Origin: a bacterium
GTDB lineage: Bacteria > Patescibacteriota > Minisyncoccia > UBA6257 > GWB1-50-10
Length of the DNA: 64,000 bases
Direction: 5' to 3'
Assembly (NCBI GenBank): GCA_002686365.1
Contig: NZBZ01000004.1
Span: 27,079-91,078, forward strand
The position numbers and the translations under genes are program-made. The notes below the pieces were generated by a model that saw only the letters and a program-made list of their open reading frames with translations, was not told the origin of the DNA and ran no database searches. This document shows, piece after piece, positions 3,534 to 38,688 of this stretch. Position 1 is the stretch's first letter. Each line of letters starts with the position of its first letter.

Positions 3534-4961
3534 CTATTTTTTTCGCGCAAGAGGTCCTAAGGGCGTGTCTTCTACTATATATCCTAACGCCTCTATTTTT
3601 TTTCTCAATGTGTCGGCTTGGACAAACTGTTTATGAGCTCTGGATAACTCGCGTTTTTTCATCATTTCCTGGATGTTTTTAGGCGTGAGAGAGGGGATTG
3701 TATTGATGCCAAGCACTCCGAGCGTCTCTTTTAGGAGGTTTAGTGTGTTTTCTACTTCTTTTTTTGTAAGGCTCCAGATTCGCGGATTTGTATTTCGGAG
3801 AAATTCAAAGATTTTTGCTGTTGCTTCTCTAGTATTAAAGTCGTCTTCCATTGCTTTCTCGAATGACTTTTTGGTGCTTTGTATTTCTTTTTGTATGTTT
3901 TGTTTTTTAGGGTGCGGAGCAGATTTTTTTGACTGTTTTCTTAGTGTGAGTTTTTGGATGAATTCGTCGAGACCCTCTCTTGCTTTTTTTGACTGCTCGA
4001 CAAGTTTTTCCGAGTAGTGCGCAGGGGAGCGGTAGTGATGCATGAGAATGATCCACCGGAATAGTTCGGCATCATGTTTTTTTAGGAAGCTTTCTATTGT
4101 AATAAAGTTTCCTAGGCTTTTTGACATTTTTTTGTTCTCGATGCGTATGAGTCCGGCGTGCATCCAGATTTTCACAAATGGCTTTTTGCCTGATGCAGCT
4201 TCCTGTTGCGCGATTTCTGCTTCGTGGTGTGGGAATTTAAGGTCTAGTCCTCCTCCGTGCAAATCATACTGTGGGCCAAAAAAACTCTCTGTCATTGCAG
4301 TATCTTCAATGTGCCATCCAGGTCGGCCCCAGCCGAGAGTGGTTTTCCATGCTGGCTCACCTTTTACGAGCTTGTACTTGTTAGAGCTTTTTGGTGCGTT
4401 TACGAATTTCCAGAGGGCGAAGTCTCCTTTATTTTTCTTTTTTATACTTTCATCAATGCGTGATACACCGTCTTCAGCCTGTGTTATTGTTCTTCGCGCG
4501 AGTTCTCCATAATTTTTAAACTTCTTGATGTTGAAGTAGTATCCTTGGTTTGGGATTTCATAGGCATATTCTTTTTTTATAAGAGTTTGCACTTGGCGCA
4601 CTATTTCCGGAATGAATTTGCTTGCTCTTGCATATGTATCTACTGTGTTTATTCCAAGGGCCTTCATATCTCGATAATAGGTTTCTTCGAATTCGTGTGC
4701 GAGTTTTAGCGGATCTTTCTTTTCTTTTTTTGCCCGGTCTATGATTTTGTCGTCTATATCTGTGATGTTTTGAAGATAAAAAATCTTCCATCCTTGTGCG
4801 CGGAGGTATTTTACGATTACGTCAAAGGCAAGCTGTGTTCTTGCGTGTCCAATGTGGGCAAGGTCGTATACAGTTGGGCCGCATACGAAGAGATTGATGG
4901 GCCGATTTTTTGGTTTTTTTAGGAGCTCTTTTTTTCCACTTAGGGTGTTAAATATATACAT
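3534..4961 (-). CDS. cysS: Cysteine--tRNA ligase
   Basis: Class I aaRS HIGH motif (CGPTVYDLAHIGHAR) and KMSKS motif (KMSKSLGN); 475 aa. Confidence 0.9.
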   Translation of the reverse strand: MYIFNTLSGKKELLKKPKNRPINLFVCGPTVYDLAHIGHARTQLAFDVIVKYLRAQGWKIFYLQNITDIDDKIIDRAKKEKKDPLKLAHEFEETYYRDMKALGINTVDTYARASKFIPEIVRQVQTLIKKEYAYEIPNQGYYFNIKKFKNYGELARRTITQAEDGVSRIDESIKKKNKGDFALWKFVNAPKSSNKYKLVKGEPAWKTTLGWGRPGWHIEDTAMTESFFGPQYDLHGGGLDLKFPHHEAEIAQQEAASGKKPFVKIWMHAGLIRIENKKMSKSLGNFITIESFLKKHDAELFRWIILMHHYRSPAHYSEKLVEQSKKAREGLDEFIQKLTLRKQSKKSAPHPKKQNIQKEIQSTKKSFEKAMEDDFNTREATAKIFEFLRNTNPRIWSLTKKEVENTLNLLKETLGVLGINTIPSLTPKNIQEMMKKRELSRAHKQFVQADTLRKKIEALGYIVEDTPLGPLARKK

Positions 4962-4965
4962 TGTG

Positions 4966-5922
4966 TTATCTGCTCCAGTTTAGGACGATGTCATTTATTT
5001 CCGGAGATTCTGTTCTTGATAGGTTGCTTATGAGGCGCACCTTGTATCGTAGATAGCGGCTGCTTGCGCTTTGGAGTTTGTCTATACAGATTGGAGTGTC
5101 AGCTCCTGCTCCGGGGAATGAAGTTGCTGCTGCAGGACAGGATGCTCCATAGTAGGTGAATTCGCTTCCGCCAGGCCCTATAAAGGTCCATGGTCCGGTT
5201 GGTGAGTTTGATACAGCGATTTGGAAATCAACAGAGGTTCCGCTTGGCTGTGTTCCTTGCCAGATGATGCTGTTTAATACAACTCCTCCTTCTTCTCCAG
5301 TGTCAAAGATAGATGATTCGAGGTAGGCGATAGAACTTGTTGCTCTCCATGTGGTTGCTACTTTTGTTGAGCTTCCGTGGAATCCAATCCATCCTTCGAT
5401 GTCATTCCATGCAAATCCTTCAAAGTCTCCTGATACTCCGTTTATTGTTACTCCGTATGGGTTTGATATACATACGTCTGGGCCTCCATGGTTTGTCTGG
5501 TTACAGTTGAAGCTTACCCAGCCGATTGCATCATTCCATGCATATCCTGAAAGGATTCCGCTGGCATTGCCGTTTGTGCAGGTTCCGTCTATGTTGTGTG
5601 GTCCTGGGCCATTGCAGATGCCGTAGTTTGATGATGTGCATATATTTCCGTTTCTTGTTGTTGCGCAGTCAAGCGATATATCTCCAATAGCTGATTCTGC
5701 GTATCCTTCTATCTTTGAACCAAAGACTGTAACTGTGTTGCTTATGTAAAAGTCCCAATATCCGCTTATATCGCTCCATGCTACTCGTTCAGCTGGGTCA
5801 GAGTGGATATTTGTGCCTGGATCAGCTTGTGCTTCAAAGAGATTTGTTGTAATGCTCGTTACAACGCCGAAAATGAGCACAATAGCTATAACAATCCAGA
5901 ATATGATTTTCCATGCTTTCAT
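4966..5922 (-). CDS. Membrane-anchored surface protein with three AW(S/N)D-x-IGW-x-F repeats
   Basis: Probable start MKAWKIIFWIVIAIVLIFGVV (single N-terminal TM helix); repeats AWSDISGYWDF, YAWNDAIGWVSFN, FAWNDIEGWIGFH; Cys/Gly/Asn-rich. The ORF track extends it to 6105, but the upstream 61 codons have no supporting signal. Confidence 0.5.
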   Translation of the reverse strand: MKAWKIIFWIVIAIVLIFGVVTSITTNLFEAQADPGTNIHSDPAERVAWSDISGYWDFYISNTVTVFGSKIEGYAESAIGDISLDCATTRNGNICTSSNYGICNGPGPHNIDGTCTNGNASGILSGYAWNDAIGWVSFNCNQTNHGGPDVCISNPYGVTINGVSGDFEGFAWNDIEGWIGFHGSSTKVATTWRATSSIAYLESSIFDTGEEGGVVLNSIIWQGTQPSGTSVDFQIAVSNSPTGPWTFIGPGGSEFTYYGASCPAAATSFPGAGADTPICIDKLQSASSRYLRYKVRLISNLSRTESPEINDIVLNWSR

Positions 5923-6105: not shown

Positions 6106-6462
6106 ATGTCCGCCCTGACCAAGGCTACGAGACTTCTCGAGGCTCGTAAGGCGAGCATCGCAAGCGCGTTCGGTCTTCAGTCTTTCGCTGGTTTCGTCAA
6201 TGTCGTTCCGTCAGCGGAGACTCGTGTGATCTGCGTTGCTGTCGGATCGTCCGGCAACCAGAGGTACGTTCGTTTCCGTGTGCGATTCAAGCGCAACGGA
6301 GACTTCTACCGCGTCGAGATGACTCCGCTCGGCCGCAATACTCTCAAGGTCTCTAAGACCTTCGATGACCTGAAGGCGGCTCTCGCGACAGAGTGCAATG
6401 CGGACGCTGCGACCGAGCCCGCGACAACCTCCGCCCTTCATGGGGCTATGGCTCCCGCTTAG
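6106..6462 (+). CDS. Hypothetical protein (GC-rich islet A)
   Basis: ORF begins exactly where composition jumps to high GC; AGGGGAA SD-like motif 11 nt upstream. Confidence 0.4.
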   Translation: MSALTKATRLLEARKASIASAFGLQSFAGFVNVVPSAETRVICVAVGSSGNQRYVRFRVRFKRNGDFYRVEMTPLGRNTLKVSKTFDDLKAALATECNADAATEPATTSALHGAMAPA

Positions 6463-6640
6463 AGGAGACCAAGGAGGCTCTCCTGGACTGGACTGGATTC
6501 TCTTGCCGGCTCACCGGCATCACGGAGGCGTTGCACGTATGCGCCTCCTTTTATTCGAAAATGTTTAGTTGTAGTGAGGTATTGACAATATGTATTTGGT
6601 GGGGTATTTTAATTGTTAGAAATGGAAATGGAGGTGCTTC

Positions 6641-7081
6641 GTGGCAGCACCAGCAACTAAGTTAACAGTTGCTCTTCACGCGAAAAAGCTTACGAATGAG
6701 GAGCTTACAGCTTTCGCGTCAGCCATACAGGGAGACGCGTGCTCAAAGGCGGAACTTCAGGAAGAGACGTGGTTCAACAAGGTCGAGGCGCTCTTCGATG
6801 ATGACGGTGAACTGCCTCGGGCTGTGAAGGATGCTGTTTTCGTCCTTGTGCAACAAAGGGCGTGCGTGGCAGCAGCTGCTCTTTGTGCGGAAGAGCTTGA
6901 GGATCATGAGCTTGTAGCTTTCGCGTTGAGCGTAAAGCTGGGCAGATGCTCGAAGGCGGATCTGCAGAAAAAGCCGTGGTTCAACGAGAGGATTGAGGAG
7001 CTCTTCGATGATGACGGCGAGCTGTCTCAGGCTGTGAAGGATGCCGTCTTCGCTCTTGCAAATACAAGAATGGAGGCGTAG
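6641..7081 (+). CDS. Hypothetical protein with internal ~55-aa tandem duplication
   Basis: GTG start preceded by GGAGG 6 nt upstream; halves TAFASAIQGDACSKAELQEETWFNKVEALFDDDGELPRAVKDAVF / VAFALSVKLGRCSKADLQKKPWFNERIEELFDDDGELSQAVKDAVF. Confidence 0.45.
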   Translation: MAAPATKLTVALHAKKLTNEELTAFASAIQGDACSKAELQEETWFNKVEALFDDDGELPRAVKDAVFVLVQQRACVAAAALCAEELEDHELVAFALSVKLGRCSKADLQKKPWFNERIEELFDDDGELSQAVKDAVFALANTRMEA

Positions 7082-7108
7082 GTATAAGCGTAATGGGTTT
7101 GGTACTAT

Positions 7109-7894
7109 GTGCTGAGCCTATCCATCCCTTTAAATTTGGCGGCGAGTTTTGATGAAGAGAATTCCGTTGTAGATTTTTCTTGGGCGAGTTCGACGGATTC
7201 TGATACGTTAGATAATTTAATTACATACGAGGTGGCGCATACGACTTCGACGGATTTGTCGGGGGTTTCGTGGAGTTCGGTTGGGTCGTTTTTGCAGACG
7301 AGTTTGGATTTGGGTTTTGGGGAGACGTATCTTATTGGTGTGCGAGCAAAGGATGATTTTGAGAATGTGTCGGATTCGACGGAGATTTTTTATGATGTGC
7401 CTGTTCCGGAGTTGCCGCTTACGATTTCAAATGTCTGGTGGGGATATGTTAGTAGTTCGGCGGCGCAGGAACTTAGTTTTGAATTTAGTAATTATGATGT
7501 GCTTGTGTCGAGTACGTGGACTGTTGCGGCGTTTTATTTGAATTCGATTGTGCCGGATAAAGGCCCGTGGCCGACAGGCTTAAATAATCTTTTGAATGAC
7601 GGTGAGGAGAAAATTTGGGTTCGGTATCAAGGGTGTTTTGGAAGTGCTATTACGACAGAATTTTCTTTGGCAGGGGATGGTGCGTCGTGTGCTGGCGATG
7701 TCAGGAATAGTTATGATCCGTCTGGGGTGGACTTTCCGGAAGTAGGGGAGGTGGTTATGGAAGTTAGTCCGCCAGCTGGTGAAGAATCTCATTCTTCAGA
7801 GGACTATATTACAATTCTTTTTCTTTCATCTAGTGATGGAAGTAATTTCCAACAAGTTGGGAGGTACCCTGTGCCGATTTACTTTACGGAGTGA
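7109..7894 (+). pseudogene. FN3-like domain protein fragment (no N-terminus or signal peptide, GTG start directly after an in-frame stop)
   Basis: Sequence ITYEVAHTTSTDLSGVSWSSVGS...TYLIGVRAKDDFENVS resembles a fibronectin type III fold but the ORF starts mid-domain; C-terminus FQQVGRYPVPIYFTE is repeated downstream. Confidence 0.4.
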
Positions 7895-7895
7895 T
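7849..7895 (+). repeat. Copy 1 of ~45-bp boundary repeat (encodes FQQVGRYPVPIYFTE-stop at the end of ORF 7109..7894)
   Basis: Near-identical to 8968-9015; partial copies at 10186-10215 and 10727-10750. Confidence 0.8.
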
Positions 7896-7908
7896 GCTTT
7901 GAAAACAT

Positions 7909-7955
7909 TTATTTTTACTTAGTTTAGTATCCGGCCGGATACTAAACTAAGTTTA
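7909..7955 (+). terminator. Perfect 18-bp-arm palindrome (ACTTAGTTTAGTATCCGG/CCGGATACTAAACTAAGT) followed by a T-tract and GGGAGG
   Basis: Read directly; rho-independent terminator geometry. Confidence 0.6.
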
Positions 7956-8085
7956 GGTTTTTGGGAGGGGGGGGTAGTGCTTGACGCGTAGTATGATGTG
8001 TGTTACTTTTTGTATCGGCAGGGTGGGGTACATTTCGGTAGCATGAGGTATGTTGCCTTGTGCAAAACAGCGAGGATGGAACAAC

Positions 8086-8874
8086 ATGTCGTTGGTTTTT
8101 ACAGATAAGGTAGCAAGCGTTGAAGTACTGGATGCGTTCCTTGTGGACAAGGGTGTTGACCCGGGATTCATCTCGAGGATGGTGAATGCTTTGACTCCGC
8201 TCGTTCAGGAGTATGAGCCCGAGGGACGGGAAAGGGAGTGGCCGCATCTCCTCGAGGCAGGATTTATGGACCCCGAGAGCCTGGGGAGGGCGATCGTTGG
8301 GGCGACCGGAGTAGATTTGCCCATCGTCTTGGTTCCACTTGCGGACGTTGAGTGTCCGCCCAATTGGGTCGCGGAGGACTTCAGGCCTTTGATTCAGGGG
8401 ATGAGCCGGCTGGCTCTCGATGCGTCGCTCGGCGCTCCCTTGTACGGGATGCTGGGGCATGATCCAGAGGCGCAAGTGGATGGTGATCCTCACGGAATCG
8501 TTCGGATGCTCGAGACCGCGTTCGCCACACACATCTGGCATAGTGATGATACGGGACAGCCCCTGATGACGGATGGAAACGTCGTGGGCTTCCTCCGCGG
8601 CCTCATTGTCCAGAGACTCCTCGAAGACGGAAACGCAGGGGCGATAAATGAGGCTAGTGGGTCTTCACTCGCGGACAGCGCATGGGCGCTTATCCGAAAG
8701 GTCCTCATTGAGGCGGTGGAAGGAAGGTGTGAGGAGGCAGAGAAAACATGCACGCTTCTCAAGTTCTGGATGACGAACTGGGTCTGGGGAAGATCCAGCG
8801 AGGATGTGGGCATTGGTAGGGGGATGATTGTTTTCGCGGGCGAGACACATCCAGCAAGATTGGTGAGTGTATGA
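8086..8874 (+). CDS. Hypothetical protein (cassette 1 of GC-rich array)
   Basis: ATG at 8086 with GAGGA SD 7 nt upstream (ORF track begins at 8050); GC-rich, Ala/Gly/Arg-rich product. Confidence 0.45.
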   Translation: MSLVFTDKVASVEVLDAFLVDKGVDPGFISRMVNALTPLVQEYEPEGREREWPHLLEAGFMDPESLGRAIVGATGVDLPIVLVPLADVECPPNWVAEDFRPLIQGMSRLALDASLGAPLYGMLGHDPEAQVDGDPHGIVRMLETAFATHIWHSDDTGQPLMTDGNVVGFLRGLIVQRLLEDGNAGAINEASGSSLADSAWALIRKVLIEAVEGRCEEAEKTCTLLKFWMTNWVWGRSSEDVGIGRGMIVFAGETHPARLVSV

Positions 8875-8967
8875 TTGTTTTCGTGGGCTAGGCTTGGCCA
8901 GAACGAATGACGATCATCGTCATCTCACATCGAACAAAAGGAAGGCACGTATGCCTTCCTCTTTTAT

Positions 8968-9015
8968 TTCCAACAAATTGGGAGGTATCCTGTGCCGATA
9001 TATTTCACGGAATAG
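8968..9015 (+). repeat. Copy 2 of boundary repeat (encodes FQQIGRYPVPIYFTE-stop as an orphan remnant, stop 19 codons upstream)
   Basis: Aligned by eye to 7849-7895 with a few substitutions. Confidence 0.8.
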
Positions 9016-9016
9016 G

Positions 9017-9056
9017 CAATGTTTACTCACTCGGAGAGTAAACATTGGGTTTTTTG
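9017..9056 (+). terminator. Hairpin CAATGTTTACTC...GAGTAAACATTG followed by GGTTTTTTGGGG
   Basis: 12-bp inverted repeat arms plus T-tract. Confidence 0.6.
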
Positions 9057-9214
9057 GGGATTTTGTTGGTGTATTTTTGATACATTGACAAAATGTGTGA
9101 TAAATGTTACTTTCTGTTTAGATCTAACTCTAGTCTAAATGTCATTTTTCATTGCGATCTGAGCAGCTGAACACTAAGTTTCGTTCATGTCTCGTACGCA
9201 CGAGGAGTGTTACG

Positions 9215-9715
9215 ATGTTAGGCATAGGACCGACGTCTAAGATACAGGCAGAGAATCTTCGTGACTTCGTTGGCCCCCTCTGCACGCGTTTCTACGTGAA
9301 GAGGCTCAGAGCCGCTCTCGTGAAGGAGGGGAGGGTTCTACTAGATGTGGGGTTGACTGAGAGGAAGTTGGAGAGTCTTCGTCGGCAAGGTGAGAAGCGG
9401 GCTGGGATGTATCATATGTCCTGGCGCAGGAGGAACTATCTTCATCTGGTGCGGCATCATCTGGGACTGGCGCATCTCAATCTCTTGCAATGGCTTCTGG
9501 CGCAGTTCGTTACCCGCCTTCCGCTCATGGGTCGGATGTGGGGAGCTGCTTTGTCCTCGATGGCATTCGTGCTCAGAGTTCCTGTTCCGGATGATCCTCA
9601 CAGGATCATTCGCGAAGATTACGAGCGGAGCATAGCGGAAGAGGATGATGGTGGTCTCTGGGGTCTAAGCCAATCTTCTCCTTCCTGGACTGGAGGGAAT
9701 TCTCATGACAGATAA
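9215..9715 (+). CDS. Hypothetical protein (cassette 2)
   Basis: ATG with GAGGAG SD 7 nt upstream (ORF track uses an upstream TTG at 9152). Confidence 0.4.
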   Translation: MLGIGPTSKIQAENLRDFVGPLCTRFYVKRLRAALVKEGRVLLDVGLTERKLESLRRQGEKRAGMYHMSWRRRNYLHLVRHHLGLAHLNLLQWLLAQFVTRLPLMGRMWGAALSSMAFVLRVPVPDDPHRIIREDYERSIAEEDDGGLWGLSQSSPSWTGGNSHDR

Positions 9716-10109
9716 ACTTCGGTTCTCGCGGGATGTGCTGGAGTTTCGCGATCCTCGGCCGGGGGAGGTCAAGGAGTCGAAGGAGCCGTCGCCAATACAG
9801 TCGTGGCGGATGAGGATCGTCGGTGAGGGGCGGGATGGTGTTTACGACGTCTTCGTTGATTTGGATGACGTCGTTTCCATCAACTTCTCGATCGACGATG
9901 CTAGCGTGAGGATTCTCATCAATAACAAGAGGTATTCGCTTCGGGCGTATACTCGTGTTGAAGGGTCTTCTCAAATAGTGGGCCTTCGTCCCGCGATTCT
10001 TCATCGGCTGTGTCCGGGAGTTGCTCTGAACTGCCCGTGGCAGTCAGAGCATGAGTCACAGGTATCATTGGATGACCTGGGCATCATCGAGGCGCAATTG
10101 GTGCGGTAG
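9705..10109 (+). CDS. Hypothetical protein (cassette 2, overlaps the previous gene by 11 nt)
   Basis: ATG with GGAGGG SD 8 nt upstream; overlapping two-gene arrangement. Confidence 0.4.
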   Translation: MTDKLRFSRDVLEFRDPRPGEVKESKEPSPIQSWRMRIVGEGRDGVYDVFVDLDDVVSINFSIDDASVRILINNKRYSLRAYTRVEGSSQIVGLRPAILHRLCPGVALNCPWQSEHESQVSLDDLGIIEAQLVR

Positions 10110-10185
10110 GTCACAGGCAGAGAGGTTCTGCTTGCTGTCGACGTAAGTGAGGGTTTGTCCAACGGACGCCCTCTTTTTTGTTTGT

Positions 10186-10215
10186 TAATATCCTGTTCCG
10201 ATATATTTTGAGGAG
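10186..10215 (+). repeat. Degenerate copy 3 of boundary repeat (TATCCTGTTCCGATATATTTTGAGGAGTAG)
   Basis: 25/30 identity to copy 2 by eye. Confidence 0.5.
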
Positions 10216-10239
10216 TAGGTTTTTTATGTCGGTGCTTGA

Positions 10240-10261
10240 CACACTATGTATAGTGTGTCAT
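10240..10261. promoter_or_regulatory. Perfect palindrome GACACACTATGTATAGTGTGTC overlapping a TTGACA hexamer
   Basis: Read directly; operator-like. Confidence 0.4.
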
Positions 10262-10299
10262 TGTTATATATAACTATCGTTCATTTAAATTGTTATGTA

Positions 10300-10352
10300 G
10301 CAGGTTAGAGCAACCGAATTGGTCTTTTTGGGAGATTAGTTCGGTTGCTCTA
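10300..10352 (+). promoter_or_regulatory. Long hairpin (GTTAGAGCAACCGAA...TTCGGTTGCTCTAAC, 15-bp arms) with TTTTTGGGAG in the loop
   Basis: Read directly; upstream of ORF 10398. Confidence 0.45.
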
Positions 10353-10397
10353 ACTATACGGTGCCGTTTGTCACTCTTGCAGGAGGAATGAGAAGTA

Positions 10398-10637
10398 ATG
10401 GTTTCTGATAAGAAGTCTAGTGAGGTCTGGGACGATGACATGACTGAGGAGGAGCGACTCGCTTTTCTCGAGTTGCTTGAGGGGTGTTCTCTCATCAGTC
10501 GGGAAAACTATCCGGATCTTTCCGACCTTGCTCAGAGGAGTTTCGACGACCTACCTTCCGCGCTCTGTGGCTGTCTCCGTTTGGCACGAGAAGGCGATGG
10601 ATTTAAGGCCATCTCATTGATGGATGCAACTCAGTAA
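10398..10637 (+). CDS. Small acidic hypothetical protein (cassette 3)
   Basis: GGAGG SD 8 nt upstream of ATG; 79 aa. Confidence 0.35.
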   Translation: MVSDKKSSEVWDDDMTEEERLAFLELLEGCSLISRENYPDLSDLAQRSFDDLPSALCGCLRLAREGDGFKAISLMDATQ

Positions 10638-10726
10638 GTAGGTGATGCGGTGGCTGAGTTACAATAGTGCACGTTTACGGCACTAAGTGGAGCGTTCGCG
10701 AAATAAGATTCGCTGCGCTCCCTTTT

Positions 10727-10750
10727 TATTTTAGGAATAGGCAATGTTTA
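10727..10750 (+). repeat. Remnant 4 of boundary repeat (GGAATAGGCAATGTTTA shared with 9009-9025)
   Basis: 17-nt identity to the distal part of copy 2. Confidence 0.45.
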
Positions 10751-10907
10751 TATGTTGGACTTTTAAACAAAATGTAGTCCCTCGTCGTCCCCCGACGTTA
10801 CGTCGGGGGACCCGCTCGGGATCCTGAATTTTCTAGTTTCCCTTGCCAAGGCGGGGTCAAAGAAAATTCGGGGGTTTTGGGAGGTTAAAAGTAGTATAAT
10901 TATAAAT

Positions 10908-11195
10908 ATGAAGAAGATATTTTCGTTTGTTATTTTATTATCACTCATTTCAATTGGAGGGACAGCTTTAGCTCAAGAGGCAGAGCTTCCGGATCCGGGA
11001 CTTACTCCTGATAGTCCATTTTATTTTCTAGAGAGACTTGTAGAGGGGATTGGCACTTTCTTTACTTTTGGGAATATTAAGAAGGCTGAAAGGTATACTG
11101 CTCTTGCTGCTGAAAGATTGGCTGAAGCAAAAGCTTTGGTGGAGAAGGGAAAGTCAAAACTTGTAGAAAAAATCCTTGCAAGGTATGAGGATTAG
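10908..11195 (+). CDS. Secreted hypothetical protein (signal peptide MKKIFSFVILLSLISIGGTALA)
   Basis: Typical Sec signal peptide; same frame as the next ORF, separated by a single TAG. Confidence 0.45.
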   Translation: MKKIFSFVILLSLISIGGTALAQEAELPDPGLTPDSPFYFLERLVEGIGTFFTFGNIKKAERYTALAAERLAEAKALVEKGKSKLVEKILARYED

Positions 11196-11255
11196 TTAGT
11201 AAAAGCTTCATTTAGAAAAGAGGAGGCTAGAATTAATGGGAAGGATACGAAGAGA

Positions 11256-11993
11256 GTGTCTGAGATCATAACTGAAGCCACGAATAAACATCTTATTGTA
11301 TTAGGGGTAGTATTAAAAAAAGTACCAGAAGAAGCGAAATCTGCTATTCAGCGGGCAATTACAGTTTCAACTAAAGAGGGGCTTGAGAGAGCAGTAGTAG
11401 AGTTTAAGCAAAAAAAAGATTCTAGTACAAATTATGAATTGATGAGAGCTAAATGTTTAGAATCGGGAGCGCCGCCAAATGTATGCGAGTCTCTTGAAGA
11501 GGCTCTTCAGAGTGGTATATCACCGAGAGAGATTTGTGAAAAATCAGGAGGGCCGCCAGAGATGTGCGAGATAATTCCTACCAAGGGCTTTAAATCGTTT
11601 GGACAGATTAAATCTTTCTGCACGGAATCAGGAGGGCCGGCAGAAATATGTGAATCGCTTGAATCTAACTGTAGAGAATTTGGAATAACAAAACCGGATG
11701 ATTGTTTTCGTGTTCTTTCAATTGCTACAGTAACGACTTATCAGGAGACTTCCCCTACAGCTTTTCCTATGCGTACTTTGGAAGCTGAGCGGGGTGCGGG
11801 CGTGGAATTGCAGAGCTGGGAGGAGCTTGAAGTTAGCTGTTTGAAAAATGGTTCAAGAACCGGAAAGACTCCGGAGTGGTGCGCGTCTCTTGAAGCTATA
11901 TGTAAGGAAGCGGGAGCAGAAACAGCAGATCAGTGTTATCGCGGAGTAGATTCAAAAGGGAAGTTAATACACCCATCAAAATTCTCACTATAG
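11256..11993 (+). CDS. Cys-rich repeat protein (four SG(G/A)P(P/A)E-x-CE-x-LE repeats)
   Basis: GTG start; repeats SGAPPNVCESLEEA, SGGPPEMCEII, SGGPAEICESLES, TPEWCASLEAIC. Confidence 0.45.
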   Translation: MSEIITEATNKHLIVLGVVLKKVPEEAKSAIQRAITVSTKEGLERAVVEFKQKKDSSTNYELMRAKCLESGAPPNVCESLEEALQSGISPREICEKSGGPPEMCEIIPTKGFKSFGQIKSFCTESGGPAEICESLESNCREFGITKPDDCFRVLSIATVTTYQETSPTAFPMRTLEAERGAGVELQSWEELEVSCLKNGSRTGKTPEWCASLEAICKEAGAETADQCYRGVDSKGKLIHPSKFSL

Positions 11994-12045
11994 GGTGTAG
12001 TCATAGTTAGGTTTTTGTTTGTTGAGTTGCTGTTTTAGGGTATAA

Positions 12046-12240
12046 TTGATGTATATGAAAAAAGGCATGCAATGTGGTGGTGGCTGCGCTGGCGCAATTT
12101 ATCTATTGGGCTTGGTTGGCGCGGCAATATATTACATTTCTACTGCAGCGGGTTTCTGGCTGGGTGTTTTAGGTTTACTTAAGGCGCTTGTATGGCCTGT
12201 TTTTCTTGTTTACGAACTTCTGAAGTTTTTGGGAGCGTAA
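12046..12240 (+). CDS. Small 2-TM membrane protein (64 aa)
   Basis: Two hydrophobic helices, Gly-rich. Confidence 0.35.
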   Translation: MMYMKKGMQCGGGCAGAIYLLGLVGAAIYYISTAAGFWLGVLGLLKALVWPVFLVYELLKFLGA

Positions 12241-12287
12241 GTTTCTTGCTGTATAAATCTAAATAGAAAAATAAAATAGGTTTTGAT

Positions 12288-12515
12288 ATGAAAGAAAAAA
12301 TTAACTCGTTTTTTGATTCGTTGTGGTTTAATGCCATTGCGAGCGTCGTATCTATTGGGGTGCTTGTTGAGCGTGTAGTTACAAATTATCTTTCTGGAGA
12401 TTATTATCATGAATTTATTTTGATAATAGTTTGGGTGGTTATATTGTTTCACTTTATAGCAGCTACTATAAAAGCTAATAAGAAAAGAAGAGAGGCTGTA
12501 TTAAATAATAAATAA
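12288..12515 (+). CDS. Small 2-TM membrane protein (75 aa)
   Basis: Hydrophobicity pattern only. Confidence 0.35.
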   Translation: MKEKINSFFDSLWFNAIASVVSIGVLVERVVTNYLSGDYYHEFILIIVWVVILFHFIAATIKANKKRREAVLNNK

Positions 12516-12528
12516 TAATAAAATATAT

Positions 12529-12729
12529 ATGCGTTTTGATAAATTGAACAATCGGTTTAAGTGGGGAATTATTGGAGGAGTTCTCGGAGGAGTAATTGCT
12601 ATAGTTGGTTTTTGGATATTATCGCCTCAAACAGACTCGGTTGTTCTTTTTGTATTACTTAGGGTTGTAATAGGAGCAATAGTTGCAATGATATTTGGGC
12701 CCATAATTACAACGAGATTAGTTAGATAA
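12529..12729 (+). CDS. Small 2-TM membrane protein (66 aa)
   Basis: Hydrophobicity pattern only. Confidence 0.35.
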   Translation: MRFDKLNNRFKWGIIGGVLGGVIAIVGFWILSPQTDSVVLFVLLRVVIGAIVAMIFGPIITTRLVR

Positions 12730-12752
12730 ATCTAAATAGAAATTAAAGTTCA

Positions 12753-12778
12753 AAAATCGTCACGAAGGCGATTTTTTG
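12753..12778 (+). terminator. Rho-independent terminator (AAATCG-loop-CGATTT then TTTTT)
   Basis: Read directly, downstream of 12529..12729. Confidence 0.5.
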
Positions 12779-12828
12779 ATAATGTGGTGTGAAATATTGC
12801 TTTTTTCTTTAGGGTATGGCGTACTGGT

Positions 12829-13320
12829 TTGCAGGTGTCGGGGTGGAGACTAATTACTATTTCGGATGCTGGAGGGGGATTTGTGAAATATCCTGTTGCT
12901 TTCGCTCTAGTTATTATCGCGTTTGTTGTTGTTGGAGACGGAGAGCGTGTGGGCTATGCGGTTTTGTATCTGACGTCCTCTCGAATTTCGGAGTATACGT
13001 CAGAGCAGATCGCAGACATGCAGAGCGCCTTGGAGGCTCGGTTCGAAGAGGTGTATTGGAGAGAGAAGATTCGCATTAGCGAATTTCATCCTCGCGCCGA
13101 GTTTATTCTTCCCGTTTTTGCCAGCTTCTTTGCTGATGATCCTAGGGTGCATGTGGAGCTTACGTTTATCATGCATCGTGAGGGCAGGGATCATATCATA
13201 TATGCTGACGGCGTGACAGCGCCTCAGCTAAAGGCGGATGAGGTGGCGCTGGATCGCGCCTTTCGGGCAATGTGCATCATTGTCTTGATCGCTGACAATG
13301 CGTCAGTGGCAGTGCAATAG
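12829..13320 (+). CDS. Hypothetical membrane protein (GC-rich islet C)
   Basis: TTG/GTG start uncertain; alternative overlapping ORF 12816..13079; high GC keeps several frames open. Confidence 0.3.
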   Translation: MQVSGWRLITISDAGGGFVKYPVAFALVIIAFVVVGDGERVGYAVLYLTSSRISEYTSEQIADMQSALEARFEEVYWREKIRISEFHPRAEFILPVFASFFADDPRVHVELTFIMHREGRDHIIYADGVTAPQLKADEVALDRAFRAMCIIVLIADNASVAVQ

Positions 13321-13459
13321 CGAGTGCAGCAGTCGAGGGGATATTATTGAGGGCTTGTCTATTGGGCATCCCTCTTTTTTGTTTATTTGTAAGCCGGATT
13401 TTTAGATATTGGAAATTATTGATTGTTTTTCTTGTTTATGGTCTAATTGCTTTTAGTTT

Positions 13460-14125
13460 GTGTACTGGGAATCTCGCGTGTCGTCCTGTAACTGTTCCGG
13501 AAGGAGGCCTCTAGTGGCCTTTCGTCGATCGTTCAGAAGGGCAGTGGACTTCGCTGGGATCGGGCCGTTCCTCGTGTTCTGCTTTCCTTACCTCTGGACG
13601 GATGTGTTCGTCGGTGGTGGGATCGAGTCCCTGTTAGCTCCCACGCTCATTTTGGTCTCCGCGGCCATCTTGTGGCTTGGGCGTTCTGTGGCCACGCTCT
13701 TTGAGGGAGACTGTAAGACTCCTAAGAGCATGAGGCAGTGTGGACTCCTTATCGTGCTGTTGTGGATTTCCACAACGTTGAGCACGCGGCTCTTCCTCGG
13801 TCTTCAGTGGGTTCCACTCGCCTTCCTGTCTGCGCCCATACTCTGGCATCTTGGGTGGGAGACATACTGGATCCGGCTCGCGTTCTGGCGATATTCCTAT
13901 AGGATAGAGGGTGACTTTCACGGCGTTGGGCCAGAAGATCTTGCCGAGATTCTCAGGGGTGCGACTGGGCGGGTCTGGGATGTTCCGGCTGTTCCTAGTG
14001 ATCCGTATATTCTTCCCTGGGATCCTCCGTCCAATGACGCGCTTGAGGATGCTGTTCTGTGGATTGGAGGGAAGCTGGGCGACGACGACAAGGTTCGAAT
14101 CGTCCCGTACTACAGGGGGTCTTGA
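13460..14125 (+). CDS. Hypothetical polytopic membrane protein (GC-rich islet C)
   Basis: GTG start; about four TM helices; 221 aa. Confidence 0.4.
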   Translation: MYWESRVSSCNCSGRRPLVAFRRSFRRAVDFAGIGPFLVFCFPYLWTDVFVGGGIESLLAPTLILVSAAILWLGRSVATLFEGDCKTPKSMRQCGLLIVLLWISTTLSTRLFLGLQWVPLAFLSAPILWHLGWETYWIRLAFWRYSYRIEGDFHGVGPEDLAEILRGATGRVWDVPAVPSDPYILPWDPPSNDALEDAVLWIGGKLGDDDKVRIVPYYRGS

Positions 14126-14139
14126 TTCGTGTTCGAAAA

Positions 14140-14172
14140 CCGGATAACTGCGTGTTATCCGGCCTTTTTTAT
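14140..14172 (+). terminator. Rho-independent terminator CCGGATAAC-TGCGT-GTTATCCGG then CCTTTTTT
   Basis: 9-bp perfect stem plus T-tract immediately after ORF 13460..14125. Confidence 0.65.
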
Positions 14173-14178
14173 TTCGAT

Positions 14179-14274
14179 ATATCGAGATTCTGACATATCG
14201 AGATTTAGAGATTTTGATATATCGAGGTGTAGAGATATTGAGATATCGAGATTTTGATATGTTGAGTTTATGAG
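14179..14274. repeat. 12 tandem units of an 8-bp repeat (consensus ATATCGAG) running into the mscS start codon
   Basis: Perfect 8-bp periodicity parsed by hand; same unit recurs inside capA at 20704-20791. Confidence 0.85.
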
Positions 14275-14863
14275 GGCTTGGGGTATACTGTTTTATATGG
14301 AAAATCTAAGTTTTGAATTCCTAAAAACTACTGGATTAGAGCTTTTGAGTACTTATGGATGGAAGATATTTTGGATATTAGTACTCTTTTTTGTTGGGCG
14401 AATAGTTCTTACTCTTGTTATTCATCGGATAGTGCGATTTGCAAGTGATGGGGATAATTCTACGACAACAGCTGTAGAGAAGCGCGCAAATACGCTTGGG
14501 CATGTGCTTCGGACTGTTGGGAATGTGGTGATTTATATTATTATCCTTCTTATGATTCTTGATTTATTTGGCGTGGATATTCGGCCAGTTTTAGCTGGCG
14601 CAGGAGTTTTGGGGCTTGCAATTGGGTTTGGAGCGCAGACTTTGGTGAAAGACTTTGTTTCAGGACTTTTTATTATTTTAGAGAATCAGTATGGAGTAGG
14701 AGATAGGGTAAAGATTGGGAGTGATGAGGGGAATGTTGTGAAAGTTTCTATGCGGTCTACGGTTTTGAAGGATGATGATGGGGGAATGCATTATTTTTCT
14801 AATAGCTTGGTAAAGAATGTGGCGAATCTTTCGAGGGTGAAAAAGAAGGAGGAGGCAGCTTAA
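14270..14863 (+). CDS. mscS: Small-conductance mechanosensitive channel MscS family (short form)
   Basis: TM helices followed by the MscS beta-domain signature LAIGFGAQTLVKDFVSGLFIILENQYGVGDRVKIG. Confidence 0.8.
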   Translation: MRAWGILFYMENLSFEFLKTTGLELLSTYGWKIFWILVLFFVGRIVLTLVIHRIVRFASDGDNSTTTAVEKRANTLGHVLRTVGNVVIYIIILLMILDLFGVDIRPVLAGAGVLGLAIGFGAQTLVKDFVSGLFIILENQYGVGDRVKIGSDEGNVVKVSMRSTVLKDDDGGMHYFSNSLVKNVANLSRVKKKEEAA

Positions 14864-14865
14864 AT

Positions 14866-14890
14866 TTTCAATTCTCAATTTTCAATGGCC
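14866..14890. repeat. AATTTTCAATTCTCAATTTTCAAT repeat (TTTTCAAT family)
   Basis: Same family as 1985-2094 and 50955-51075. Confidence 0.5.
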
Positions 14891-15007
14891 CTTTGGGGCT
14901 TTTTTGTTTGGATTTGACCAAAGCTTGGTTTTTTGTAAGAGTTTGGAGTGGTTCTTGTCTCGTTCGTGCTCGTCACCTTCTTCTGAGATTCTGAGAGAGG
15001 ATACGTA

Positions 15008-15409
15008 ATGTCTCCGAATATGAATATTAAGCTTTCGTTCCTGGATAGTCTCCCATTCTGGGGAGTGATCATCTCAGTGCTCTTGGTCCCCTTGGTCCCC
15101 GTGTATTTGTTTCACTTCTTCCTGCGCGAAATCGGCATGCCATGGAATCTGCTTCCTGTGTTTCCGACTGTTCTCGCGTTTTACCTTGGCTACACCTGTC
15201 GAAGGTATGGTAGTCGATCTGACGGCAGGGGTATTATGCGAGTTGCGGGCTCTATCGCGCTTGTCCTTGGTGTTCTTTGCGGAGGGGTTGGCGCTGCAAT
15301 TATTGTTAATGGCCTATGCGCCTTTTTCTTTGTAGGCGCGCCGATACTTTTTTGGGGTATTGGCTGGGGCATTGCTTGGGGCATTGGCTTAGCCTTGCCC
15401 CGCATATAA
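15008..15409 (+). CDS. Hypothetical membrane protein (small GC-richer islet, GAGAGAGGA SD)
   Basis: 133 aa, 3-4 TM helices, GWGIAWGIG tail. Confidence 0.35.
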   Translation: MSPNMNIKLSFLDSLPFWGVIISVLLVPLVPVYLFHFFLREIGMPWNLLPVFPTVLAFYLGYTCRRYGSRSDGRGIMRVAGSIALVLGVLCGGVGAAIIVNGLCAFFFVGAPILFWGIGWGIAWGIGLALPRI

Positions 15410-15467
15410 GTTGGCTAGATAGGGGAGGTAGTTTTCGTAGGGGATCTCTTGCAGCGTGCAGGAGATT

Positions 15468-25350: not shown

Positions 25351-26343
25351 ATGTTGAATTCAAAAGTAAAACTATCGCGAAAAATTTTTGGCAAGGATGT
25401 GGAGATGATTCCTACGCGAGATGGATATGGCGATGGGTTAGTTATGGCAGGAGAGAAGAATGATGATGTAGTTGTGCTTACTGCTGATCTTGCAGACTCT
25501 ACGCGGGCGCAGGCGTTTGCAGAGAAGTTTCCGGAGAGATTTTTTGAGTGCGGAGTTGCAGAGCAGGCTATGGCTACTGTTGCGGCAGGGCTTGGAACAT
25601 CCGGGAAAATTCCTTTTATTTCATCGTACGCAACTTTTTCTCCGGGGCGAAACTGGGAGCAGATTCGGACATCGATTTCTTATAATGATTCAAATGTGAA
25701 GATTGCGGGGCATCATTCGGGGATTTCTGTTGGTCCTGACGGGGTAACGCATCAGGCAGTTGAGGATATTGCAACTATGCGGGTTATGGCGAATATGACT
25801 GTTATTCAGCCATGCGATGCAATAGAGGCGCGAAAGGCAACAATACAGGCGGCAAAGGTGTGGGGGCCAATGTACTTGCGGTTTTCTCGGGAGAAGACAG
25901 CAGTTTTAACAAGTGATACTTCTCCATTTACTATTGGCAGGGCAGAGGTGTTGTGGGAAGAGAAGGGAGCAAAGGTTTTGATTATTGGGTGCGGACCCTT
26001 ACTTCACCATGCTCTTTTGGCTGCAAAAGAGCTTAAGAAGGAAAAGGTTCCTGTTGTTGTTTTGAATTCTCATACCATAAAGCCATTGGACGCAAAGACG
26101 ATTTTGCCTTTGGCAAAGAAGATTGGCGCTGTTTTAACAGTTGAGGAGCATCAGGTGCATGGCGGGCTTGGAGGAGCTGTTGCTGAACTTTTAGCACGGG
26201 AGTGTCCAGTGCCTATTGAGTTTATAGGAATGCAGGATACGTTTGCAGAGTCTGGTCCGCCTGACGAATTGTGGAACAAATATGGTATGGGGGTAGAAGA
26301 TATAAAACGCGCTGTAAATAAAGTTTTAAAAAGAAAAAGATAA
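25351..26343 (+). CDS. tkt: Transketolase, C-terminal (pyrimidine-binding) subunit
   Basis: Transketolase Pyr and C-terminal domains; lies directly downstream of the N-terminal subunit. Confidence 0.85.
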   Translation: MLNSKVKLSRKIFGKDVEMIPTRDGYGDGLVMAGEKNDDVVVLTADLADSTRAQAFAEKFPERFFECGVAEQAMATVAAGLGTSGKIPFISSYATFSPGRNWEQIRTSISYNDSNVKIAGHHSGISVGPDGVTHQAVEDIATMRVMANMTVIQPCDAIEARKATIQAAKVWGPMYLRFSREKTAVLTSDTSPFTIGRAEVLWEEKGAKVLIIGCGPLLHHALLAAKELKKEKVPVVVLNSHTIKPLDAKTILPLAKKIGAVLTVEEHQVHGGLGGAVAELLARECPVPIEFIGMQDTFAESGPPDELWNKYGMGVEDIKRAVNKVLKRKR

Positions 26344-26408
26344 ATGTTACCTCGCCAAGGCGGGGTCCTCAACTTCGTGGCTTCGCTGCGCTCAGACGAA
26401 GTTGGGAA

Positions 26409-26471
26409 ATACGGAATGGGGGCTAAGGATATAAAGGAGGCGGTGAGGAGGGTATTGAAGAGAAAGAAATA
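26409..26471 (+). repeat. GC-richer duplicate of the transketolase 3-prime end (encodes YGMGAKDIKEAVRRVLKRKK-stop)
   Basis: Compared with 26281-26343 (YGMGVEDIKRAVNKVLKRKR-stop); preceded by hairpin CAACTTCGT...ACGAAGTTG at 26371-26405. Confidence 0.6.
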
Positions 26472-26542
26472 GATTGATTTTGTTTGTATAAAAACAGGAA
26501 CCTTTTGGAGGTTCCTTTTCGTGGACGGCCGAGTTGGTTCGG

Positions 26543-27142
26543 TCAGGCGGCTATCTTAGCGATTTGGATAGCCTTTTGTCGCACCCAGCTTACTCTTGCG
26601 AGGTCTTGTATGAGCTGTATGGCCTCTTCGGTGCTTCTGGTCAGCTCTACAGCTGTGTCGTCTTGTCCCTCGACTCGTTGTCCGAGCGCCTTCTCAGCCT
26701 CTCCTCGGTTGGTATCGTTGAGGTTGCATACGATTATTCGTAGTGCAACTCGTGCTGTTCCATCGTTCATGATGAGGGCTTCGGCTGTTTCCATGTCTAC
26801 ATGAACCCAGCTGACCTTACTCAGATCCACCTGCTCTGGCTGTTCACTGGTCAACACCACCTCGTCCGGTACGTGGGTGAGATGTATCGTGAGTATGTTC
26901 CCGGCATCATCTCCCAGATCCCGAACTATCTTCAGGTTTCTTACGGTGGTTTTCGTGGTGATTTCCACCGAACCCTCTGGCATGCCGAGTAGTTCTCTTA
27001 TCTCCGACATTGCCTGCTCGGCAACTCCCATTCCTCCCATGAGCATGCGGACCCCGACTTCTTTGTCGTCTGGCATTTGCTCGATGAAGCCATCCAGCCC
27101 TGGGGAGTTAAATATGGTGGGCATTCGTTCTTCCCTTCTCAT
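26543..27142 (-). CDS. Hypothetical protein (GC-rich islet D)
   Basis: 199 aa, acidic; composition differs sharply from flanking genes. Confidence 0.4.
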   Translation of the reverse strand: MRREERMPTIFNSPGLDGFIEQMPDDKEVGVRMLMGGMGVAEQAMSEIRELLGMPEGSVEITTKTTVRNLKIVRDLGDDAGNILTIHLTHVPDEVVLTSEQPEQVDLSKVSWVHVDMETAEALIMNDGTARVALRIIVCNLNDTNRGEAEKALGQRVEGQDDTAVELTRSTEEAIQLIQDLARVSWVRQKAIQIAKIAA

Positions 27143-30606: not shown

Positions 30607-30688
30607 TTTTTGATTAGTTTTTTGTTTTTTACCGCGTCTAGTAAGGCGTTTTTTGTTTGTGTTTTTACTCTAATGTATACTTAATGTA

Positions 30689-31975: not shown

Positions 31976-31977
31976 TT

Positions 31978-32799: not shown

Positions 32800-32967
32800 C
32801 TCCCGACCTCCTATTGACAAAAATCTACGTATGTGTTACAGTAGATTCTTATTGTGGTAGGATGACATCTGCTCATTAAAAACTGAGGTCTCCCTCCTTC
32901 ACAGGGAGAAGCGCCGTAGCACGTTGGTTTGGGCGCTTCTCCACTGTTTGAAGAAGGGAGATAGACC

Positions 32968-33330: not shown

Positions 33331-33472
33331 TGTAATGCGATACGCTACCAGCGTAAACGAGCCGCCCTTTGGGTGGCTTTTCCATTCCTTCCCCACCGTC
33401 TCGTCATTACAGCCCGTCCCACTTCACGTATACTCGCCTTACCCCAAACCAGACCAACATGAGGGAAGGCAC

Positions 33473-37797: not shown

Positions 37798-37817
37798 GTT
37801 TTTAGCTTGTTTGGCAA
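37798..37817 (+). repeat. Left copy of 20-bp perfect direct repeat GTTTTTAGCTTGTTTGGCAA flanking islet F
   Basis: Identical to 38652-38671. Confidence 0.85.
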
Positions 37818-37920
37818 CCCCTGTTTTCGGGTTTTGTAAAAAAATCCGCCTCGGCAGTGAGATGCTTTGGCGGGTGTACGATGTTTGCGGGGCGTGATGG
37901 CTCGGCCACGTTCGCGCGGG

Positions 37921-38571
37921 TCAGGCGGTGAGTGCGACCCAGACGTTGGGATCTTGTCCCCATTTGCCCGTAGGAGGATGCGCGACGATGACTTCCACGA
38001 GAGGCTTCCACTTCGTGAGCATGTCGGTGTTGTCATTTGCCGCACAGGCTATGAGTATTCGTAGGATGTAGTCGATTCCTCCCTCCAGACACTTCTGGGG
38101 CGTTTCGGGGAGGCCGATGTTCCTGACAGTGGAGCACACTTCTTGGGAGAAGGCTTCGTATGCCTCGTCGAGGCCTTTCGGCATCTCCAGGCCTTCGGCC
38201 AGCTTGTCGAGTATGATCGTAGATACGTACCCGTCGTCTGGAACGCTATCTACGAAGAGTGTCTCGAGCTCGCCTTTGGTGATAGGGCCGTATGCAAGGA
38301 GATTCTCCCACAGCTCTTCGTCGGCCCATTCGGGTCGCGTGTCAGGTACTGGATTGCTTGCCGAGAGATGAATTACTCTCTCGACTCTTTCTGTCAGCGT
38401 TCTCAGAAGTGCCTGTTGGATCTTCTTTGTGTCGCAGTCGTCTCCTGATGTCAGGCTCCATCCAGCTTCGGTTGCCTGGAGAATGGGCCTGATTGTTTCC
38501 TCCAAGGCATCAACTGTTGTCTCGTCCGTGTGTTCGAGCAGAGCGACTTGCAGACGTTCCCAGCTTTCCAT
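37921..38571 (-). CDS. Hypothetical protein (GC-rich islet F)
   Basis: ATG with AGGGAGG SD 9 nt upstream; 216 aa acidic. Confidence 0.45.
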   Translation of the reverse strand: MESWERLQVALLEHTDETTVDALEETIRPILQATEAGWSLTSGDDCDTKKIQQALLRTLTERVERVIHLSASNPVPDTRPEWADEELWENLLAYGPITKGELETLFVDSVPDDGYVSTIILDKLAEGLEMPKGLDEAYEAFSQEVCSTVRNIGLPETPQKCLEGGIDYILRILIACAANDNTDMLTKWKPLVEVIVAHPPTGKWGQDPNVWVALTA

Positions 38572-38651
38572 TGGGGAGCCTCCCTTTTGGCGGCGCTGGC
38601 GTTTAGGGCGTCACTGTGTTTTTTGTACTTGTTTTTTACTTGTGTGTCAAT

Positions 38652-38671
38652 GTTTTTAGCTTGTTTGGCAA
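38652..38671 (+). repeat. Right copy of 20-bp perfect direct repeat GTTTTTAGCTTGTTTGGCAA
   Basis: Identical to 37798-37817; brackets an 834-bp GC-rich insert. Confidence 0.85.
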
Positions 38672-38688
38672 GGTTTTGTTGACAATCA

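Follow-up and report, generated by a model that had tools for sequence, protein, structure and literature searches.

Some integrative elements rebuild the 3′ end of the gene that they enter, as phage 21 and e14 do in icd, and ICESt1 and the cis-mobilizable elements (CIMEs) in fda. In the bacteria of the candidate phyla radiation (CPR, Patescibacteria), whose tiny, streamlined genomes hold few recognisable mobile elements and a large share of ORFans, the entry of genes is poorly understood. A further model, displacement of a 3′ end by incoming DNA, has been proposed for the effector-immunity arrays of type VI secretion systems (T6SS) and for the C-terminal displacement in rhs genes (Kirchberger et al. 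2017, PMC5361080). In this work, we analysed a 64-kb stretch of the genome of an ultra-small, uncultured CPR bacterium from the sea (contig NZBZ01000004.1, hereafter the window, which means the whole 64,000 nucleotides) and found that the end of one gene, an open reading frame (ORF) called FN3-like below, recurs downstream as a series of orphan copies separated by ORFan genes of foreign composition. With about even confidence, we read this array in the same way, as a scar record of repeated additive recombination (3′-end displacement) at the 3′ end of one gene, the cargo of which would be “moron-like” ORFan transcription units.

The gene and the copies of its end lie as follows.

7109..7894, + strand: FN3-like ORF, 261 aa, acidic, with a GTG start and a host-like GC content of 45%
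7845..7894, + strand: E1, the live gene end (FQQVGRYPVPIYFTE, stop TGA), from sequence and repeat comparison
8966..9015, + strand: E2, an orphan gene end (FQQIGRYPVPIYFTE, stop TAG), complete, in frame and 89% identical to E1
10189..10218, + strand: E3, an orphan gene end of 30 nt (YPVPIYFEE, stop TAG) with no terminator of its own
10727..10776, + strand: E4/Td, the most degraded relic, with TATTTTA-GGAATAG from the gene end and GCAATGTTTA, then a degenerate hairpin

The last 46 nt of the gene (7845–7890) are identical to 8966–9011 at 41 positions out of 46 (89%), with z = 26.6 against shuffled flanks, and E3 is 84% identical to E2. The 20-mer TATCCTGTKCCGATATATTT, sought with up to 3 mismatches, occurs in the 64 kb at these three sites only, with 0.01 occurrences expected. 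The fourth, partial copy consists of the exact 17-mer GGAATAGGCAATGTTTA, common to 9009–9025 and 10734–10750, which covers the last 7 nt of E2 with its stop region and the left arm of the terminator of E2; GCAATGTTTA in E4/Td is likewise the left arm of this terminator type (Tb). The preliminary description of this DNA had noticed the orphan copies of the gene end, and its account stands with coordinates corrected by 3–8 nt.

The alignment of the copies clearly shows in-frame gene ends with a stop codon, and their differences are nearly all synonymous. Between E1 and E2 there are 8 nucleotide differences, distributed 1/1/6 by codon position (p = 0.02), which amount to 6 synonymous codon changes (TGA/TAG counted) against 1 conservative change, and E3 departs from E2 by 3 synonymous changes and 1 non-synonymous one. 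As E2 and E3 are in frame, stop-ended and changed mainly at third positions, they evolved within functional genes. Both orphans are therefore not decaying target-site duplications but derive from diverged alleles or paralogues that once functioned, of which they represent the ends. Furthermore, the farther a relic lies from the live gene, the shorter it is (48, 30 and ~17–25 nt) and the less intact its terminator, which fits serial displacement with the newest insertion beside the gene. Since E2/Tb and E4/Td have the exact 17-mer in common, with E3 between them, cassettes 2 and 3 may already have been joined in a block before they arrived.

The FN3-like ORF itself has neither a signal peptide nor a Shine-Dalgarno site, and the fold label in its name is unconfirmed: the single-sequence AlphaFold2 model is uninformative, with a predicted local distance difference test score (pLDDT) of 33.3. 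Among 5.8 billion proteins it matched only itself, and it had no Pfam or PDB match. A metagenome-wide scan with the gene-end 20-mer returned only the same Tara contig (two copies) and 17 chance matches, and no other allele or array with the FN3-like gene was found in the collections searched. The likeness of the relic peptide YPVPIYF to YPVPIEF of transketolase goes with only 60% DNA identity and was treated as coincidence.

The array reads FN3-E1 / c262 / E2 / c166+c134 / E3 / c79 / E4, followed by a DUF5667 gene. Its remaining features are the following.

7917..7952, + strand: Ta, which terminates the FN3-like gene, a perfect palindrome of 36 nt and then a T-run (−25.1 kcal/mol, z = −5.6; also matched by the terminator scan)
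7981..8009, + strand: P1, promoter-like TTGACG-17-TACTTT upstream of c262, read by eye and below the threshold of the consensus scan (8/12)
8086..8874, + strand: c262, gene of cassette 1, GC 56%, Shine-Dalgarno site GAGGA
8939..8965, + strand: t1, terminator of cassette 1 (−14.3 kcal/mol, z = −5.2; also matched by the terminator scan), its T-run abutting E2
9017..9047, + strand: Tb, the terminator that would once have served the E2 allele (−15.1 kcal/mol, z = −4.0)
9086..9113, + strand: P2, promoter-like TTGACA-16-TACTTT, read from the sequence
9215..10109, + strand: cassette 2, the overlapping high-GC ORFans c166 (9215–9715) and c134 (9705–10109), from codon-position GC
10149..10180, + strand: t2, terminator of cassette 2, from the terminator scan and folding
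10236..10355, + strand: P3, TTGACA inside a palindrome (10237–10260) with a leader hairpin, from the inverted repeat
10398..10637, + strand: c79, gene of cassette 3, very acidic, GC 51%
10685..10726, + strand: t3, terminator of cassette 3 (−20.4 kcal/mol, z = −3.3), its T-run abutting the last relic E4
10783..10907, + strand: distal flank with two hairpins, GGTTTTGGGAGG and TAGTATAAT, the latter 7 nt upstream of the start codon (ATG) of DUF5667, a split gene

The gene units at 8086–8874, 9215–9715/9705–10109 and 10398–10637 had been put forward in the preliminary description, and they do look like real genes: all are on the + strand, with strong Shine-Dalgarno sites of the GGAGG type and a foreign GC content. 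Their GC1/GC2/GC3 values of ~0.6/0.4/0.6, against a host GC3 of 0.3–0.4, are typical of real genes from a genome of ~55% GC. A stable hairpin, different each time, follows every copy or cassette end, just as had been noticed, and a T-run comes next in all but one. The same description had taken the cassettes to be promoter-less; upstream of each unit we find TTGACR-N16-17-TACTTT or a similar candidate promoter, and each ends in a terminator of its own. Because every cassette has its own promoter-like site, Shine-Dalgarno site and terminator around an ORFan, we regard the cassettes as putative autonomous transcription units.

None of the cassette proteins matched Pfam, NCBIfam, PHROG or PADLOC, c166 and c134 also had no viral relatives, and the array matched no Rfam family; the cassette proteins are known solely from this Tara population. 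A full HMMER search with c262 against 1.84 billion representatives returned c262 itself and one spurious remote match, P0018, which is driven by Listeria-Bacteroides repeats and uninformative. The single-sequence AlphaFold2 model of c262 is uninformative too (pLDDT 38.8). Two hairpins deserve separate mention. The core TAGTATCYGG...CCRGATACTA of Ta is also present in the terminator palindrome of a distant relative, L030 (13159–13186), so that Ta may represent a conserved or mobile type of palindromic terminator. The 25-bp hairpin at 10303–10355 in the 5′ leader of c79 (−37.5 kcal/mol, z = −8), with TTTTTGGGAG in its loop and no T-run after it, could serve in regulation or processing, or be the remnant of an inverted repeat.

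Two features that we considered as recombination signals were not borne out. The recurrent T-tract with “TTTTTGGGAGG” of the preliminary description shows no enrichment: exact TTTTTGGGAG occurs three times in the window, once in an unrelated ORF, against 0.94 expected, a count reached in 7 of 100 shuffles, and the copy at 9049 reads TTTTTTGGGGAT. An integron-like attachment site finds no better support, since the GTTRRRY and RYYYAAC cores occur at the level of chance (3 and 2 matches, ~3 expected) and not at the cassette borders. Outside the gene-end repeat, the junctions are not significantly similar (z = 0.1–2.4, with z = 1.4–2.4 for the promoter/stem-loop comparison), and homology of P1, P2 and P3 beyond the consensus hexamers was rejected as not significant (P1 vs. 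P2, z = 1.8). Judged by sequence and folding, the junction hairpins, which are unrelated to one another, would behave as intrinsic terminators and not as attC sites.

The same signature is present at three other loci in the window.

26258–26345, 26346–26388 and 26389–26474, + strand: live end, 43-nt spacer and displaced end of the transketolase gene (tkt), z = 12.2
37798..38679, − strand: insert with ORFan c216 in the rpmE promoter, flanking repeat included, z = 10
12765..13463, + strand: ORFan c163 and its terminator within a diverged direct repeat of ~70 nt (z = 3.8; none of 300 shuffles reaches the score)

At tkt, the last 88 nt of the gene are 68% identical to 26389–26474, and the differences are distributed 2/5/15 by codon position (p = 0.0009). 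The peptide of the orphan is the normal C-terminus of a Paceibacterota transketolase. A sister species (L028 and L029; 88% amino-acid and 85% nucleotide identity) and the more distant L030 have pfkB directly after tkt and represent empty sites. The orphan is ~83% identical to the end of the sister-species gene, like the rest of the gene (85%); the live end is only 67–72% identical to it and has 29% GC. Since the orphan matches the sister species while the live end is diverged and AT-rich, the orphan is the ancestral end, and the live one a foreign substitute. A high-GC ORFan, c199 (26543–27142, − strand), lies between the ancestral tkt terminator and the pfkB promoter. In addition, an exact 14-mer capable of forming a small hairpin, GCCAAGGCGGGGTC, is found both in the 43-nt spacer (26354–26367) and in the distal flank of the array (10845–10858), two occurrences in the window against 0.15 expected.

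The rpmE insert comprises 814 nt (38651 to 37838): it begins 1 nt ahead of its own TTGACA and ends with the final T of its terminator. On either side stands a copy of a 28-nt direct repeat, exact over 20 nt and with a 12-nt indel in one copy; the −35 element of rpmE is inside this repeat, and the locus adjoins the 16S rRNA gene. In L030 the target sequence is present in a single copy. For c163, the two repeat copies are 12765–12838 and 13391–13463. All four right-hand junctions are at terminator T-runs and have 4–5 nt in common with the target (ATTT, TATTT); such a T-run/target microhomology of 4–5 nt is seen at junctions J1 and J3. Visual comparison of the duplicated sequences at the four loci revealed no evident common motif. 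Flanking repeats were also sought, and none were found, for the 9.4-kb zone around the array, the insertion between the FBA and release-factor (RF) genes, or the units c199, c221 and c133. The ending of the inserts at terminator T-runs made us consider retro-insertion of transcripts, which we rejected since the −35 and −10 elements of the rpmE insert are part of the inserted DNA.

From these observations we infer the recombination pathway, the direction of transfer and the uptake of DNA. DNA of diverged relatives, probably acquired by natural transformation, would integrate by one crossover, for which the FN3-like gene or a gene-end relic already in place would provide the anchor. At the T-rich tail of the incoming terminator, illegitimate or short-homology joining would make the second junction, a few codons before the stop codon of the resident gene. 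A new gene end would thereby come from the incoming allele, the resident end and the DNA downstream of it being pushed on as an orphan. Three such rounds, or two if cassettes 2 and 3 came as a ready-made block, would suffice to build the array. The existing relics could then act as portable homology “linkers”, allowing later gains and losses by ordinary homologous recombination, and in so gene-dense a genome presumably only those outcomes survive that rebuild the interrupted gene or promoter. Type IV pilus genes are present in the window, and among CPR bacteria the Saccharibacteria are documented to be naturally competent (PMC10633639).

The array is part of a larger region. The window has 44.7% GC and bears a bacterial 16S rRNA gene, and the nearest relatives of its conserved genes are metagenome-assembled genomes (MAGs) labelled Jorgensenbacteria, Paceibacterota or Patescibacteria. 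The sequence is present in Tara Oceans assemblies and in an NCBI MAG, where the focal ORF is CL629_01030 (MAF79642.1). Between 6106 and 15467 (9.4 kb), all genes are on the + strand, opposite to the neighbouring genes, and in the three closest species (L006, L008 and L011) the HtrA-like protease gene abuts or overlaps h379. Because the genes flanking the 9.4 kb adjoin in these species, we conclude that the whole of 6106–15467 is an accretion zone. It mixes units of 36–56% GC, which looks like accretion of different ages. Upstream of the FN3-like ORF it contains the following.

6106..6462, + strand: c118, a high-GC ORFan (GC1/2/3 = 0.59/0.52/0.67)
6582–6610, + strand: promoter-like TTGACA-17-TATTTT, from the consensus promoter scan (10/12)
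6641–7081, + strand: c146, a high-GC ORFan with an internal tandem duplication

The first unit of the zone, c118, starts directly at the upstream edge of h379; it has a terminator hairpin (6524–6548) followed by TTTTATT and no match in Pfam, PHROG, PADLOC or NCBIfam. The next, c146, is built (6666–7058) of two tandem repeats of ~70 aa with 72–86% DNA identity. The terminator scan detected nothing between c146 and the FN3-like ORF (7081 to 7109), and the two probably form one operon.

On the other side of the array, the DUF5667 gene (10908–11993) is interrupted by an in-frame TAG after codon 95 (11196–11198). Relative L023 has an intact 499-aa version (4207–5706) that is 70–73% identical, its h379 being only 45% identical; this contrast suggests lateral transfer, or else a pseudogene or sequencing error in this window. 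Farther on, the 17-mer ATAAATCTAAATAGAAA occurs at 12252–12268 and 12725–12745, at or immediately past the stop codons of two adjacent genes for small membrane proteins, and ~110 nt of 8-nt-periodic repeats (14165–14276; variants of ATCGAGAT and TTTGATAT) lie between the c221 terminator and an MscS gene.

Outside the zone, comparison with L030 reveals an insertion at 30607–34477, between the FBA and RF genes, which includes a second copy of pilB, 48% identical to 42591–44315, a pilC-like ORF of 119 aa only that corresponds to the N-terminal part (cf. 44316–45530), a pilin gene, and ~1.6 kb of high-GC DNA in which ORFans overlap. A high-GC island (52601–53775, 53.5% GC) separates a small membrane-protein gene from tpiA; it has no dominant ORF, Pfam annotation or Rfam match and could be a decayed unit or an RNA.

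Several facts weigh against additive recombination as we propose it. No relative with the FN3-like gene was found in any collection searched, and neither a donor, nor an intermediate, nor an empty site at the level of a cassette came to light. All assemblies of the array are 100% identical, and thus contain no population polymorphism that would support ongoing turnover. No source of the high-GC ORFans emerged, c262 being without a homologue in the search reported above. At tkt, the divergent tract coincides exactly with the duplicated 88 nt and normal identity begins immediately upstream, which fits an element-borne replacement end, as in site-specific integration, no less well than it does a long homologous anchor. 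Random illegitimate joining would lead one to expect less regularity than is seen in the exact 20-nt repeat at rpmE and in inserts that end precisely at T-runs. It is because of the missing donor or intermediate, the restriction of the tkt tract to the duplication and the unusual regularity of the junctions that a site-specific system acting in trans (CIME- or integron-like) is retained as a rival.

The preliminary description had interpreted the array as serial site-specific insertion at one attachment site. Its serial character, with each event supplying a new gene end, agrees with our data; a single specific site is not supported by them. In the form of non-autonomous, CIME- or integron-like elements, each carrying a replacement gene end and served by a recombinase encoded elsewhere in the genome, this explanation is unlikely. 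Tandem accretion at the 3′ end of a gene is familiar from ICESt1 and CIME elements at fda. Direct repeats do flank the units, and the identical stretches of 10–11 nt between E1 and E2 might be crossover cores, but the relics are of unequal length (48, 30 and ~17 nt), and there are neither attC-like cores nor conserved inverted repeats. The foreign, recoded tkt end corresponds exactly to the duplicated interval, as if a phage or ICE (integrative and conjugative element) attP had rebuilt its target gene, and the rpmE insert has sharp ends with an exact 20-nt flanking repeat; yet with no motif common to the four loci evident on visual comparison, several specificities would be needed. The absence of an evident common motif in this comparison, together with the varying relic length, argues against one site-specific enzyme and fits homology or microhomology. 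Moreover, the units, of 0.55–1.2 kb, contain only an ORFan with a predicted promoter and terminator of its own, and no integrase (as had already been noted), transposase, reverse transcriptase or other recombinase is found among the called genes of the 64 kb.

We consider it quite unlikely that the array was built on another replicon, a plasmid or phage, and imported en bloc, or that it preserves the ends of overwritten tandem FN3-like paralogues. Relative to the conserved synteny, the whole of 6106–15467 behaves as one insertion on the strand opposite to its neighbours, and the exact 17-mer common to E2/Tb and E4/Td, with E3 between, points to a pre-formed block of cassettes 2 and 3; however, tkt and rpmE acquired this signature in situ, within the core chromosome. 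The synonymous type of divergence would suit old paralogues as well, but the overwriting of three of them, each to within 10–50 nt of the stop codon, would be an unlikely coincidence. The junctions, a stem-loop and then a sigma-70-like promoter beside ORFans, resemble the promoter/stem-loop elements (PeSLs) of phage T4 (PMC2839356), but unlike in PeSLs these sequences are not significantly alike (z = 1.4–2.4), and no unit has PHROG matches or viral relatives.

The regularity of the junctions, namely that four out of four right-hand ones are at T-runs and that the rpmE insert starts 1 nt before its −35, underlies another, improbable reading: this CPR lineage might capture genes by an undescribed route, in which ORFan units extending from promoter to terminator are mobilised as discrete modules. 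The modules might, for example, be small circles bearing a short copy of the target, or be moved by an enzyme acting in trans on terminator hairpins and T-runs. Insertion would then proceed genome-wide by gene ends and promoters, the target being rebuilt each time, and the FN3-like end would be the busiest landing pad.

The preliminary description had also raised the possibility of mis-assembly. The array is 100% identical in the MEGAHIT contig ERZ909154 k127_1430824, Tara scaffold_1844, CEPX01194014.1 and the NCBI MAG (CL629_01020–01085), that is, in several independent assemblies, which makes mis-assembly an unrealistic explanation. Two short contigs break off, L004 at 7913 and L005 at 7903, just before the perfect 36-nt palindrome Ta, and these breaks are a problem of the assembler, not heterogeneity. 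An artefact, be it a chimeric assembly with DNA of a higher-GC organism or a set of fortuitous short repeats, is therefore hardly credible, in spite of the GC jumps from ~40% to ~56% at each unit and the several contigs that end inside or beside high-GC units, for the junctions are identical across samples and assemblers, the repeat statistics rule out chance, and the breaks at 7903 and 7913 coincide with a palindrome of the kind known to be difficult for assemblers.

The window thus contains at least four datable insertion scars, at which foreign single-gene units have been added beside essential genes with the gene end or promoter rebuilt and without destruction, and donors of both higher and lower GC contributed. 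If transformation with one-sided homology is true, these scars exemplify a concrete route of ORFan acquisition in competent CPR bacteria; if an enzyme drives the process, they represent a new cassette-capture system. The process is not exotic in principle, and what we have is a clear multi-locus record of ORFan addition to a streamlined CPR genome. Given how regular the junctions are, a more specific process may yet be involved.

It remains to set additive recombination at this locus beside the described systems. Like an integron, the array is a same-strand series of small single-gene units that grows at one end, with older units farther away. In contrast to integrons, there is no intI, attI, attC core or attC fold, the cassettes have their own predicted promoters and terminators, and neither Phage_integrase nor any other recombinase family is represented among the called genes of the window. 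Elements of the ICE and CIME type also form tandem arrays, delimited by direct repeats, when one site is used repeatedly, and in these the insert supplies a diverged 3′ end and the original end is found at the far junction. Here, however, no integrase is nearby, the elements are of ~1 kb and without mobility genes, the repeats are 84–89% identical with no single long exact core, and several unrelated targets are involved.

The cassettes themselves resemble phage morons and the PeSLs of T4, in which single ORFans have a sigma-70-like promoter on one side and a stem-loop terminator on the other (Arbiol et al. 2010, PMC2839356). They too are ORFans of deviating composition with a promoter-like site and a stem-loop terminator of their own, they accumulate in a hyperplastic zone, and the rpmE insert extends from a −35 element to a terminator T-run. 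Unlike morons and PeSLs, they reside in a bacterial chromosome without phage genes, PHROG matches, viral relatives or a conserved promoter/stem-loop; the linkers are not conserved, and the repeated “linker” is a piece of coding sequence.

The closest likeness in the way of working is to the rhs, contact-dependent inhibition (CDI) and Vibrio cholerae T6SS arrays, where incoming modules displace the 3′ part of a gene and leave orphans and downstream genes behind the live one. Just as in these arrays, a fragment of the upstream gene that stems from a diverged functional allele precedes the orphan modules: E2 and E3 are such fragments, and the tkt orphan matches the orthologue of the sister species. 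The differences concern the modules. The relic comprises only the last 10–16 codons, and the peptide that it encodes hardly varies from copy to copy; a variable toxin tip is absent, and no toxin or immunity domain can be recognised, with no Pfam, PADLOC or NCBIfam match for the FN3-like or cassette ORFs; the downstream genes have a foreign composition and their own putative promoters and terminators; and the same scar is present at a housekeeping gene and in a promoter. We conclude that the array is not an integron and that, although it fails to show a toxin tip, it works like the displacement arrays.

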